Assembly (NCBI GenBank): GCA_017937125.1 | Contig: JAGBEH010000005.1 | Span: 34,837 to 98,836 of the forward strand | Source of the DNA: Alistipes sp. | GTDB taxonomy: Bacteria > Bacteroidota > Bacteroidia > Bacteroidales > Rikenellaceae | Reading direction: 5' to 3' | DNA length: 64,000 bases | In this document: piece by piece, positions 28,184-32,353 of the stretch | How positions within the stretch are numbered: the first letter of the stretch is position 1 | Layout: each line of letters opens with the position of its first letter | The notes under the pieces: generated by a model | Database searches by the model: none | What the model saw: only the letters and a program-made list of their open reading frames with translations | What the model was told of the DNA's origin: nothing | Translations under genes and position numbers: made by a program

Positions 28184-29800
28184 ATGAATATCGAAAAGTT
28201 TTCGCGCCGCTCCACCGATGAGGTGCGCATAGGCCGCTGCGTTATCGGCGGCGACCGTCCGATTGCGGTGCAGTCGATGACCAATACGCCTACCGCCGAC
28301 ACCGAAGCGAGCGTGGCGCAGATCGAGCGCATAGCACGTGTGGGTGCTGACATCGTGCGGCTGACGGCGCAGGGACGCTGCGAGGGCGAAAATCTGAAAA
28401 ACATAGTCGAATGTCTGCGCGCCGACGGGTTCGATACGGCCGTCGTGGCCGACATCCATTTCGTACCCGAAGTGGCGGCCATAGCAGCCCGCTATGTCGA
28501 TAAGGTGCGCATAAACCCCGGAAATTATCGGACGTCGAACGGCGAACTGGAGGCTCTTATCGCCGAGTGCCGCGAGCGCGGCGTCGCGTTGCGCATAGGG
28601 GTGAACCACGGTTCGCTGGCCAAACATATCTTCGACGAGTGGGGCGACACGCCGCAAGGTATGGTCGCTTCGGCTATGGAGTTTTTGCGCGTATGCCGCA
28701 GGGAGGGTTTCGACAGGGTCGTCGTTTCGATGAAGTCGAGCAATACGCGCGTTATGGTCTATGCCTATCGCCTGCTGGTCGAGGCTATGGATGCCGAAGA
28801 TATGCACTATCCCATACATCTCGGCGTAACCGAAGCGGGTGACGGCATCGAGGGGCGTATCAAGAGCGCGGTGGGCATAGGCGCCCTGTTGGCCGACGGC
28901 ATAGGCGACACGATACGCGTCTCGCTGACCGAAGCGCCCGAGAACGAGGTGCCCGTAGCGCAGCTGTTGGTCGATCACTTCGCCCGCCGCGGAGGCGTGT
29001 TCCGTGTCGATGACGGATCGTTCTGGTCTCCGTTCGAATACAGACGCCGCAGTGATGTGGCGACGCCCGTCGTGCACGATGAGATAACGTCGGAGTTCCG
29101 TGTAATGGAGGCCGTCTCCGAAAATCCTACCGCCGAACTGCGTGCCGCGATACTCAATCTCGGGACCCGCGAACCCGTCGCGGTAAAGCGCCGCTACGAC
29201 GATGCGTCGCTCGAAGCGGTGGCCGTCAAGGCCGCGGCCGATTTGGGCGTATTGTTCATCGACGGCCTTGCCGACGGCATATGGATAGACGCCCCGCAGC
29301 ATCCGTCGGAGCGGCTGCGCGAGATAGAACTTGCGATATTGCAGGCCGCACGAGTGAGAATGTCCCGCACGGAGTATATTGCCTGCCCGAGCTGCGGGCG
29401 TACGCTTTACGACATTCAGACCGCACTGGCCGAAATCAAGGCGCGCACGTCGCATCTGAAAAATCTGAAAATAGGAGTTATGGGCTGCATCGTCAATGGG
29501 CCCGGGGAGATGGCCGATGCCGACTACGGATACGTCGGTGCGGCGGCCGGGCGCATAACCCTTTACAGGGGGCGCGAGGTCATAGAGCGGAATATCCCGC
29601 AGAACGAGGCTCTCGACCGTCTGGTCGCACTTATAAAGGCCGACGGAAAGTGGACGGAGCCCGATGCGAACGGCAGTCGGCACTCCGCGGCGGTATCCTC
29701 GTCGGCTCCGGCAGGCGCCGCGGCAGCCGATGCCGCGCAGCCCGAGAACAGTCCCGTACAACCCGACAGCGGCTCCGCAAATGAACATAACGCATTATGA
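28184..29800 (+). CDS. ispG: 4-hydroxy-3-methylbut-2-en-1-yl diphosphate synthase
   Basis: VQSMTNT, VADIHF, RINPGN, RIGVNHGS, HLGVTEAG, CPSCGRT and GVMGCIVNGPGE; TAATTTTG at 28131-28138 upstream; low-complexity C-terminal tail. Confidence 0.97.
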   Translation: MNIEKFSRRSTDEVRIGRCVIGGDRPIAVQSMTNTPTADTEASVAQIERIARVGADIVRLTAQGRCEGENLKNIVECLRADGFDTAVVADIHFVPEVAAIAARYVDKVRINPGNYRTSNGELEALIAECRERGVALRIGVNHGSLAKHIFDEWGDTPQGMVASAMEFLRVCRREGFDRVVVSMKSSNTRVMVYAYRLLVEAMDAEDMHYPIHLGVTEAGDGIEGRIKSAVGIGALLADGIGDTIRVSLTEAPENEVPVAQLLVDHFARRGGVFRVDDGSFWSPFEYRRRSDVATPVVHDEITSEFRVMEAVSENPTAELRAAILNLGTREPVAVKRRYDDASLEAVAVKAAADLGVLFIDGLADGIWIDAPQHPSERLREIELAILQAARVRMSRTEYIACPSCGRTLYDIQTALAEIKARTSHLKNLKIGVMGCIVNGPGEMADADYGYVGAAAGRITLYRGREVIERNIPQNEALDRLVALIKADGKWTEPDANGSRHSAAVSSSAPAGAAAADAAQPENSPVQPDSGSANEHNAL

Positions 29801-30402
29801 TAATCCTCCCTTCGACATATCTCGGCTCGGTCGAGTATTTCGCCGCGCTGGCGCAGCACGGCGGCGAGTGCGTAATCGATACGTGCGAACACTACATAAA
29901 GCGCACCGAACGCAACCGCGCGCGGATTATGACGGCCAACGGAGTGATGCCGCTGTCGGTGCACATACGCAATGCCGACCGTCCGCGTACGCCGATGCGC
30001 GACATACGCATCGACTATTCGAAACGGTGGCAGCATCTTCATTCGGTGGCTTTGCGGTCGGCATACGGGTCGTCCCCCTATTTCGAACATTATGCGCCCG
30101 AAATAGAGCCGTTCTATGAAAAACGCTACGAGTTCCTGCTCGATTACAATACCGAGCTGACGGCTTTGCTGCTGCGTTTGGGACACGTCGGGGGCGAACT
30201 GAAATTGTCGGATGCGTATGTCGAGGCTGCGCCCGACGATACGGATATGCGCGTAAAAAAACGGGAGAGCGCGTTCGTCTACCCCGAATATTTCCAACTC
30301 TTTTCCGACAGGCTTCCTTTCGCTCCGAATCTGTCGTTCATCGACCTGCTCTTCTCGGAGGGGCCGTCGTCTATCGATGTTTTAAGACGTTGCCGATTGT
30401 AA
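29797..30402 (+). CDS. WbqC-like family protein
   Basis: YIKRTERNR, WQHLHSVALRSAYGSSPYFEHY and NLSFIDLLFSEGP. Confidence 0.85.
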   Translation: MIILPSTYLGSVEYFAALAQHGGECVIDTCEHYIKRTERNRARIMTANGVMPLSVHIRNADRPRTPMRDIRIDYSKRWQHLHSVALRSAYGSSPYFEHYAPEIEPFYEKRYEFLLDYNTELTALLLRLGHVGGELKLSDAYVEAAPDDTDMRVKKRESAFVYPEYFQLFSDRLPFAPNLSFIDLLFSEGPSSIDVLRRCRL

Positions 30403-32353
30403 GCGTCGTGCGGTCGGCCATATCTCCTGCCGTTACCTCTATCGTGCTGCGTCCCTGCATCGCTGTCGAATCCGATTCGTAGCGGCAGCGCCCGACATTG
30501 TGTATGCGTACGGTGTCGCCGTTGATCGTCAGTGTCGGGTTTTCGAGCGACGAGTAGAACCGCACGGTCTGGTTCGTGCGCGTACGGTGCTGGAACTGCT
30601 TGTTCTTTATATGCAGCGTCGGCGACGAGGTGTTCCAGAGTGCGCGGTAGAGATAATATATGTCTTTAGGCTGTTTGTGGTCGAGCGACACCAGCCCCGC
30701 GTTCTGAACGGATGTCAGATAGCGCGTCGAGCCGAAGTCGAACATATTGTTTATCCAGATGCCCCAGAACAGCGTGTTGTCCGACAGCTGATCGACATAC
30801 CCTTCGTGGAAGCGCGTCTGCCATATTTCGGGTCTCGGGTTCTGGCGGTTCTTTTTCCTCACGGCTATGTCCGACGGCTGCCCGACGGCGTCGCCCGCAC
30901 CGTAGCATACGGCCTGTTTGAGGTGCCCCCACTGTGCCTCGAGCAGCTCCTGCCATATTTTCAGGTCGGAGACCAACCCCTTGTCCCAGCCGAGGCTCTG
31001 CTGCCATACTATCAGGTCGGTGATGAAGTTTATGTCGCCGTCCTGATTGCTGCAAGCGACGGTCGGCCGCGACGGGTCGAGTTTTTTTGCCAGGTCGTTC
31101 AACTCGCGTATGTAGGCGAGGAGGTCGCCGCCCCTGCGGGGTTTGAGCAACGAGAATATGCCCCACATCGCCACCGACGGATGGTTGTAGTTCTGCGCTA
31201 TGATTTCATACAGCTGCATGCGCCCGTTATCCTTGAGCCGCTGCGAGGGAATGTAGGCTATGTCGCCCAAAAACGATGTCTGTGTCAGCGGGAAATCTAT
31301 CCATACGAGCATCCCCAGTTCGTCGCAACGGTCGTAAAGATAGGGTGCGTGCGGTGCCGTGGCCGAACGCAGGGCATTGGCTCCCAAATCGCGGATCATC
31401 TGCAAATCCTCGTCGTAGTCGCTTTCGCGCAAGGCATTGCCTACGGGTGTGCGGTCGTGGTATAGCGTTACGCCGCGGACGGGTACGGTGCGCCCGTTCA
31501 GGTGGAAACGGTTTTCGGCCGTTACGTCGATACTGCGGAATCCCGTTTTTATTCGTAGCGTATCGCTGCCCGCGACGGCTTCTACGGTGTAGAGTTTCGG
31601 GTCGCAGAGGCTCCACAGTTCGGGGTTCTCGATTGCGAAAGGTATCGTTACGGCCTTGCCGTCGGTCTTCGCCCGCAGACTCTTGCGTACGACAACATAG
31701 CCGTCGGGACCCGTCAGCGATACGCCGACGTTGCACGCCGCGTCTTTTGTCGAGGAGAGGTAGAGGGTGATGCTCCCGTCCACGCGTTCGCGCGTGACTG
31801 AGGTCTGATTGACGAGCAGGCCGTCGGTGCCGTAAAACATCGGGGTTATCGTCGTGCGGTCGGTCACGATAAGCTCCGCATCGCGGTATATTCCGCCGTA
31901 GGTGTTCATCTCCGTCGAGAGCGGGAAGATGTCGTTTTCGAGCGTGTTGCTCACCATAACGTGCAGCGAGTTGTCGTAGTCGTAGCGCACCAGATCGGTG
32001 ATTTCGAACGTAAAGGCCGTGTATCCGCCGCGGTGCTCGCCCGCGTGTTCGCCGTTTACGAAGACGTCGGCCACGTTCTGCACGCCGAAAAAGCGCAGGA
32101 ACAGTCGTTTGTCCCGCCATTCGGAGGGTATGTAAAGGTCGCGCAGGTAGTTGGCCGTGGTCTGCATATAGTACCGCGTGCCTGTCAGCGCGTCGAGGTT
32201 CCACGTGTGTGGAAGAGTGACCGTACGTGCGGCGTCGCCCGTGTTTTCGTGACGGAAAAAGAATTTCCAGTTGTCGTTGAGCGAATAGACTTCGCGCGCC
32301 TCGGCCGCCCCGATAAACATAACGGACAGCAGTATAATGATATAGCGTTTCAT
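30371..32353 (-). CDS. Secreted GH2 (beta-galactosidase/glucuronidase-like) fold protein lacking both catalytic glutamates
   Basis: SLNDNWKF, VTLPHTWN, GEHRGGYTAF, YGGIYRD, LWSLCDPKLY and GFRSI; NE replaced by SL and SEYGA replaced by VCYGA. Confidence 0.88.
   Translation of the reverse strand: MKRYIIILLSVMFIGAAEAREVYSLNDNWKFFFRHENTGDAARTVTLPHTWNLDALTGTRYYMQTTANYLRDLYIPSEWRDKRLFLRFFGVQNVADVFVNGEHAGEHRGGYTAFTFEITDLVRYDYDNSLHVMVSNTLENDIFPLSTEMNTYGGIYRDAELIVTDRTTITPMFYGTDGLLVNQTSVTRERVDGSITLYLSSTKDAACNVGVSLTGPDGYVVVRKSLRAKTDGKAVTIPFAIENPELWSLCDPKLYTVEAVAGSDTLRIKTGFRSIDVTAENRFHLNGRTVPVRGVTLYHDRTPVGNALRESDYDEDLQMIRDLGANALRSATAPHAPYLYDRCDELGMLVWIDFPLTQTSFLGDIAYIPSQRLKDNGRMQLYEIIAQNYNHPSVAMWGIFSLLKPRRGGDLLAYIRELNDLAKKLDPSRPTVACSNQDGDINFITDLIVWQQSLGWDKGLVSDLKIWQELLEAQWGHLKQAVCYGAGDAVGQPSDIAVRKKNRQNPRPEIWQTRFHEGYVDQLSDNTLFWGIWINNMFDFGSTRYLTSVQNAGLVSLDHKQPKDIYYLYRALWNTSSPTLHIKNKQFQHRTRTNQTVRFYSSLENPTLTINGDTVRIHNVGRCRYESDSTAMQGRSTIEVTAGDMADRTTLTIGNVLKHR

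Follow-up and report, generated by a model that had tools for sequence, protein, structure and literature searches.

The stretch of DNA analysed here (the window, 64,000 nucleotides of an Alistipes sp. genome, contig JAGBEH010000005.1) carries on its reverse strand a gene, standing alone among housekeeping genes, for a probably exported protein that has kept the fold of glycoside hydrolase family 2 (GH2) and lost both of the catalytic glutamates of that family. The gene, its promoter and the parts of its product are laid out as follows.

30371..32353, reverse strand: complete open reading frame (ORF) of the GH2-fold pseudo-glucuronidase (P0001), 660 amino acids and a stop codon
32374..32381, reverse strand: Bacteroidota-type -7 promoter box TATATTTG, a perfect match 28 nt upstream of the ATG
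32297..32353, reverse strand: signal peptide MKRYIIILLSVMFIGAAEA, residues 1-19, with predicted cleavage before R20-E21 and without a lipobox Cys
31868..32281, reverse strand: N-terminal jelly-roll domain (GH2_N, Pfam), residues 25-162
31535..31780, reverse strand: immunoglobulin (Ig)-like GH2 domain (Pfam), residues 192-273
30635..31516, reverse strand: triosephosphate isomerase (TIM)-barrel domain (GH2_C, Pfam) with the dismantled active site, residues 280-573
30374..30628, reverse strand: C-terminal beta-domain, residues 576-660, which corresponds to the additional C-terminal domain of the Bacteroides fragilis beta-glucuronidase (BfGUS)

There are no internal stops in the 660 codons of the ORF, and all three Pfam domains score above their gathering cut-offs (PF02837 61 bits, PF00703 31 bits, PF02836 71 bits). 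An AlphaFold2 model built from a 39-sequence alignment has a predicted local distance difference test score (pLDDT) of 80.8 and a predicted template modelling score (pTM) of 0.85, its lowest-confidence segments being the beta/alpha loops round the old active site. Foldseek aligns this model over its full length with BfGUS (5z1a, 3cmg) and with the mini-loop-1 (mL1) beta-glucuronidase (GUS) of Tannerella forsythia (8dhe) at template modelling (TM) scores of 0.88-0.89 and 34-35% identity, and by fold and sequence family the protein falls within GH2 as CAZy defines it. The full-length GH2 architecture of the original prediction, which was made from the sequence of the window, is thereby upheld from end to end. 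So is its claim of secretion: the signal peptide was assigned by eye from its n/h/c layout and from its conservation, the n/h/c pattern and the 'A|RE' junction are kept among orthologues and R20 is invariant in alignment A1, which points to export via Sec with a signal peptidase I site and to a product that is probably periplasmic. A Cys at residues 13-26 occurs in 33 of the 126 full-length orthologous coding sequences on which all orthologue counts given here rest, with a lipobox-like 'LAAC' in L054, L061 and others, and part of the orthologue clade may therefore be lipoproteins instead of soluble periplasmic proteins.

Hydrolysis by a retaining GH2 enzyme needs both catalytic carboxylates, and recognition of a glucuronide needs the N-x-K motif together with a shell of Tyr, Asn and His residues. 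The alignments place the following replacements at these sites, all on the reverse strand.

31352..31369: R329-S-A-T-A-P334 in place of R-x-x-H-Y-P (HMMER alignment)
31148..31153: S401-L402 in place of the Asn and the acid/base Glu of N-E (HMMER alignment)
30983..31006: W450-QQSLGW-D457 in place of W-N-R-Y-x-G-W-Y, the Asn and both Tyr being gone (Tyr to S453 and D457)
30902..30907: C483-Y484, a one-residue deletion of the nucleophile Glu of the canonical S-E-Y-G
30749..30751: N535 in place of the conserved stacking Trp of the subsite
30695..30706: Q550-N-A-G553, the remnant of the glucuronate-recognising N-x-K-G (NDKG in BfGUS)

Against BfGUS (3cmg/5z1a) the HMMER alignment pairs 'WGLFNELKE' with 'WGIFSLLKP', 'RLAHYPQ' with 'RSATAPH' and 'GISEYGAG' with 'AVC.YGAG', the last with a gap of one residue, and Q550-N-A-G553 is preceded by a four-residue loop deletion that is restricted to the Alistipes-type subclade described below. 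The original prediction that both catalytic Glu are missing, that N-E reads S-L at 31153-31148 and that RSATAP stands in place of RxSHYP is borne out by these alignments, and the coordinates it gave for the S-L pair are exact. Its reading of VCYGA survives in part: Cys483 does lie at 30907-30905, but the Glu has not been substituted by Cys. Relatives in other genera read 'S-YGAGASI' opposite the canonical 'SEYGAGASI', so that Cys483 occupies the position of the Ser and the Glu has been deleted, not replaced. In one relative, L129 ('SSYG'), the alignment before the Tyr is ambiguous between a substitution and a deletion.

When the approximately 108 alignment columns that are at least 85% conserved among 63 catalytic representatives are considered, the Glu-less proteins keep those of the fold core and have lost all those of the -1 subsite, that is HY, N-E, N..Y..Y, the nucleophile, the Trp and N-x-K. 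The losses are specific to this gene and no artefact of alignment, because the seven other GH2 homologues of the same genome all retain N-E. An active retaining GH2 has an acid/base Glu where barrel strand 4 ends (S401-L402 in this protein) and, where strand 7 ends, a nucleophile Glu in the setting x-E-Y/F-G (the deletion at C483-Y484 in this protein). By the seven-residue rule of the GUS atlas, which asks for NxKG, the two catalytic Glu and the N and Y motifs (PMC12660308), the protein falls outside as well, with NxKG reading QNAG, N reading S401, E reading L402, the nucleophile E deleted and Y reading S453/D457. We infer from these residues that the product is no longer a retaining glycosidase, and the dismantled state of the -1 subsite speaks against the old site having simply gone on binding glucuronides.

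These losses are not peculiar to one genome. A search over 5.8 billion proteins returned 3075 homologues, and in the best 120 of their cluster representatives (52-100% identity) both Glu are lost, those that bear a name being entered as 'Alistipes sp. beta-galactosidase'; an identical protein is present in the public collection (P0002). One full-length copy is found in each of 24 genomes of the same genus and a single copy in 112 of 121 genomes of the family, and both Glu are missing from all 20 of the same-genus loci examined. None of the 126 orthologues has the complete catalytic pair and all have the one-residue gap at the nucleophile. Position 401 is Ser in 120 of them, the acid/base position 402 is variously L, R, M, D, Q, C, N or K (with Glu in a single sequence), position 457 is E, N, R, K, S, Q, D or M, and position 483 is C in 45, A in 34, S in 27, T in 8, E in 4, Q and I in 3 each and V in 1. 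The original prediction had asked whether the substitutions are conserved in orthologues, and the loss of the complete catalytic pair proves common to all 126. In four Alistipes sequences (L014, L101, L102 and L107) an 'I-E-Y-G-G' has been re-created through a change of Ser to Glu before the Tyr, with Arg at the acid/base position. A conservation scan picked out W79, E160, D364, W475, L478, Y519 and N574 as conserved specifically in the clade. The nearest relatives of the window protein come from metagenome-assembled genomes (MAGs) of the ruminant gut, and the named records are from Alistipes and Rikenellaceae, including the cultured A. timonensis DSM 25383 and A. muris DSM 112343.

The ratio of nonsynonymous to synonymous substitution (dN/dS, omega) was estimated by the Nei-Gojobori method for 57 pairs at 80-99.5% identity, with the values for domains pooled over 16 independent pairs. 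Omega ranges from 0.03 to 0.26 and is about 0.13 when pooled; by domain it is 0.09 in the N-terminal domain, which is the most constrained, 0.16 in the Ig domain, 0.11 in the TIM barrel and 0.22 in the C-terminal domain. In the same genome pairs the neighbouring genes give 0.089 (ispG), 0.089 (rsgA), 0.088 (spoU), 0.13 (wbqC) and 0.22 (cvpA), hence the dead GH2 is as constrained as its housekeeping neighbours and is under purifying selection. The variability of the pocket between lineages had suggested that it might be evolving neutrally, a suggestion contradicted by an omega of 0.10 for the old subsite positions over short distances. Homology to active enzymes without the key residues, combined with retained purifying selection, is what characterises a pseudoenzyme, and both are found here.

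The promoter is conserved along with the coding sequence. Of the 126 orthologous loci, 115 have a TAnnTTTG motif in the 120 nt upstream, mostly at -26 to -36, as compared with 3.6% of control windows. The original prediction had given the gene its own promoter, and the -7 box 28 nt from the ATG, kept in these 115 loci, agrees with that. Across the whole window there are 40 occurrences of TAnnTTTG against 18.3 +- 4.2 in shuffled sequence, which is consistent with widespread use of the -7 motif in the genome.

The gene is monocistronic and alone on its strand, with a wbqC-like gene and ispG on the convergent side and cvpA, rsgA and spoU on the divergent side, and the nearest of these neighbours overlaps it.

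29797-30402, forward strand: wbqC-like ORF, the 3' end of which overlaps the 3' end of the GH2-like ORF convergently by 32 nt (30371-30402)

Of 57 loci for which both flanks are complete, 53 show this order (wbqC/ispG, the gene, cvpA/rsgA/spoU), as do most members of the clade that come from other genera; the wbqC-like gene is the most constant neighbour (linked in 102 of 128 loci). The location is not that of a polysaccharide utilization locus (PUL), in which susC/susD-like genes or genes of other carbohydrate-active enzymes would stand alongside: the neighbours are ispG, the wbqC-like gene, cvpA, rsgA and the spoU methylase, a set that is conserved across genera. Distribution was followed through 31 sampled genera of the GTDB family Rikenellaceae, one copy having been fetched from each of 19 added genera, and the nucleophile-less clade is present in 15 of the 31; the idea of a Glu-less form in all genera of the family did not survive the 19 further genera. 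Membership of the clade coincides with gene position, with relatives outside the clade lying elsewhere in the genome. The gene is therefore a single orthologue, passed on vertically and set among housekeeping genes, and not a PUL gene.

The history of the losses was followed in a search of 1.84 billion representatives at 50% identity and in maximum likelihood trees (IQ-TREE, LG+G4, quick searches, SH-aLRT support). The nucleophile-less proteins form one clade of 48 rows (support 100), nested in a clade of 65 rows (support 97) that is already without HY and the Lys of NxK; most of the members of the larger clade that lie outside the smaller one have lost the acid/base (N-E to S-N, S-D or S-K) and kept 'GEYGAG'. 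Outside the 65-row clade come the BfGUS-like proteins that are fully catalytic, the nearest being the 'beta-glucuronidase LacZ4' of Millionella massiliensis. An Alistipes-type subclade (17 rows, support 100) sits on a long stem of 0.46 substitutions per site and adds the four-residue loop deletion and an acid/base position that is mostly hydrophobic or basic, and the terminal branches within the dead clade do not exceed those of catalytic enzymes in length. Mini-loop-1 beta-glucuronidases like that of B. fragilis would appear to be the ancestors of the lineage. From the nesting of these groups the order of loss would be as follows: glucuronate recognition and the acid/base would have been lost first, with the disappearance of His-Tyr from HYP, of Lys from NxK and, in the majority of members, of the acid/base Glu (NE to S-x); the nucleophile Glu would then have been deleted; and in Alistipes the NxK loop would subsequently have been shortened by four residues, with a hydrophobic or basic residue taking the acid/base position.

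Two further sets of relatives deserve mention. Half-dead BfGUS-like GH2 proteins occur in other genera of the Rikenellaceae (L131-L133, L137, L141, L145, L147, L148; P0134, P0135, P0142, P0148), which keep the nucleophile GEYGAG, have S-N, S-K or D-K for N-E, lack HY and the NxK Lys, and are encoded away from the wbqC/cvpA locus; their substrates may be ones with good leaving groups, or they may represent a further class of pseudoenzyme. Five family relatives (G048 (L048), G049, G084, G095 and G104) have one or two stops in frame, TAG in most cases, which could be pseudogenes, assembly errors or recoding, and L048 also retains GEYGAG and HYPH.

The reading that we favour, with a probability of roughly 0.7, is that the gene encodes a selected, exported and non-catalytic pseudo-glucuronidase that binds a ligand or a partner, or serves as a scaffold, in the cell envelope. 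A selected function other than hydrolysis is indicated because the gene is single-copy, has its own promoter, holds a fixed position and is under purifying selection at the level of housekeeping genes despite the loss of its residues. The intact beta-sandwich domains together with a remodelled barrel face would carry the binding or scaffold role. The original prediction had likewise taken the protein to be a pseudoenzyme, which, with the Glu losses conserved through the family and omega at 0.03-0.26, probably still describes it best.

A number of observations weigh against this reading. The old subsite positions are not neutral, with an omega of 0.10 that falls to 0.07 in a shell of +-2 residues around them, and carboxylates persist near the old pocket, position 148 being D or E in 118 of 126 orthologues, D353 being present in 119 of 126 and D364 being conserved throughout the clade. 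It is this combination of a low pocket omega with nearby carboxylates that makes a remodelled ligand or catalytic site conceivable. The gene is furthermore absent from 2 of the 31 genera and another 14 have non-orthologous BfGUS-like relatives only, these being half-dead or fully catalytic (for example L138 and L143), so that not every member of the family needs it. Finally, its neighbourhood points to no partner or ligand, the gene being monocistronic and on the strand opposite to its neighbours. The one exception might be the wbqC-like gene, the product of which presumably belongs to a family of unassigned function that occurs in O-antigen gene clusters, and this hints only weakly at surface glycans of the cell itself.

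A bolder and more speculative version, which we hold with low confidence, is that the dead GH2 is a lineage-defining component of the Rikenellaceae envelope with a new molecular function. It might serve in the periplasm as a lectin or as a chaperone of glycans or glycoproteins belonging to the cell itself, or its remodelled barrel might carry out a non-hydrolytic reaction. Were that so, the series from full enzyme through nucleophile-only to Glu-less protein in one family would record the replacement of hydrolysis.

Unlikely, in our view, is a cryptic enzyme in which the barrel has been remodelled round a new active site, either with migrated carboxylates (E148, D353, D364, D457) or with some non-hydrolytic or cofactor-assisted chemistry. 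Such remodelling would fit the selection on the pocket over short distances and the near-constancy of the acidic residues at 148 and 353, and it would also give a long stem of the kind seen for the Alistipes subclade; moreover H299, S330, Q452, W533 and R544, all in barrel loops, came out of the conservation scan as invariant within the genus. There are also the intermediate relatives that retain the nucleophile only, and some glycosidases of that sort, such as myrosinase, can work with activated substrates or exogenous bases. However, lineages of the orthologous clade differ in what has replaced the acid/base, the residue next to the nucleophile, the Tyr, the Trp and the Lys, and a shared new catalytic apparatus is improbable on that account since invariance would be expected of it. 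Nor did the conservation scan yield a new acidic pair throughout the clade, and the barrel loops at the old site are among the low-confidence parts of the model. A Glu two residues past the Tyr ('YGE') was considered as a migrated nucleophile; it is present in many Alistipes, is not found in this protein (YGAG) and does not extend to the whole clade.

It is decidedly doubtful that the dead protein is instead a regulatory subunit, forming hetero-oligomers with a catalytic GH2 or GUS of the same cell or modulating it. Many pseudoenzymes do modulate active paralogues. Beta-amylase9 is reported to enhance alpha-amylase3 (PMC11326238), GUS enzymes are oligomeric (PMC6219552), and the same genome encodes a possible partner, beside which there are six further GH2 proteins with intact N-E.

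G000 contig C6, about 137361-138353, outside the window: 720-amino-acid ORF of a probable genuine beta-glucuronidase with RLAHYP, NET, SEFG and N-R-K-G

This candidate partner is, however, only about 33% identical and is unlinked, and the dimers of the BfGUS type differ from the interfaces of other GUS enzymes (PMC6219552).

The original prediction had also raised the possibility of new chemistry through the Cys, and thiol catalysis with Cys483 as the replacement nucleophile now looks very improbable: Cys is the commonest residue at 483 and directly precedes the conserved Tyr484-Gly485, but the position also accepts A, S, T, E, Q, I and V among orthologues that are strongly constrained by purifying selection, its counterpart in the alignment is the Ser that preceded the deleted Glu and not the nucleophile, and there is no acid/base partner. 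A recent pseudogene, a degrading allele or an artefact of MAG assembly can be dismissed on the orthologue survey and the dN/dS values, for while the genome is a 12-contig assembly that is about 90% complete and a few family relatives elsewhere do have in-frame stops, an identical protein is on public record, the losses are shared with intact frames by more than 120 cluster representatives and the 126 genomic orthologues, omega is about 0.1 and promoter and signal peptide are conserved, all of which goes against the possibility, named in the original prediction, of a decaying allele among orthologues that have kept Glu.

Pseudoenzymes as such are an ordinary phenomenon; what is new here is one that is single-copy, syntenic and lineage-wide, that is constrained at the level of housekeeping genes and that has intermediates in sister genera. 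Neither a Glu-less GH2 nor an Alistipes pseudo-GUS was found described when literal terms were searched in open-access text, an absence that is weak evidence. Alistipes and other Rikenellaceae are abundant in the gut, and counts of GH2 and GUS genes are used to predict the reactivation of drug, hormone and bile conjugates; proteins such as this one, annotated as 'beta-galactosidase' or GH2, would inflate predictions of activity made from carbohydrate-active enzyme (CAZyme) or domain annotation, and atlases of GUS filtered by residue drop such sequences as false positives without comment. They are at the same time uncharacterised, conserved proteins of a major gut lineage, constrained like ispG or rsgA, and with their relatives they offer a natural, phylogenetically ordered series for studying the repurposing of a glycosidase fold once catalysis is gone.

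Amongst characterised proteins the closest in build are BfGUS (PDB 3CMG, 5Z1A) and the T. forsythia mL1 GUS (8DHE), which have the same four domains including the extra C-terminal beta-domain, are of similar length and, like the window protein, come from Bacteroidales and appear to be exported. In phmmer comparisons they match residues 15-619 of the window protein with E values of 1e-130 to 1e-120 (about 1e-130 over residues 15-614 for 5z1a/3cmg). BfGUS hydrolyses glucuronides and its C-terminal domain has been described (PMC6219552); it has HYP, N-E, N..Y..Y, S-E-Y-G, the subsite Trp and N-D-K-G, whereas the window protein has none of these. Millionella massiliensis LacZ4 (P0137, WP_283391079.1), which NCBI places in the Rikenellaceae, is 40% identical with the same length and domains, is placed immediately outside the degenerate clade by both trees and keeps all the catalytic and glucuronate motifs. 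The half-dead Rikenellaceae proteins of the 65-row clade resemble the window protein in the change of Asn to Ser and in the loss of HY and of the Lys of NxK, and differ from it in having kept the nucleophile GEYGAG and in being non-syntenic.

Further afield, pseudo-glycosidases are known as the chitinase-like lectins of GH18 and as the GH13 heavy chains of amino-acid transporters. To these can be added the pseudo-polygalacturonases of beetles in GH28 (PMC6549527) and beta-amylase9 in GH14 (PMC11326238). In all of these, as in the window protein, the fold has remained under selection after loss of the carboxylates, and the GH18, GH13, GH28 and GH14 cases act by binding or by modulating a partner. 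They belong, however, to other folds, families and hosts and were born by duplication beside active paralogues, whereas the window protein is the product of a single-copy, syntenic and lineage-wide bacterial gene.

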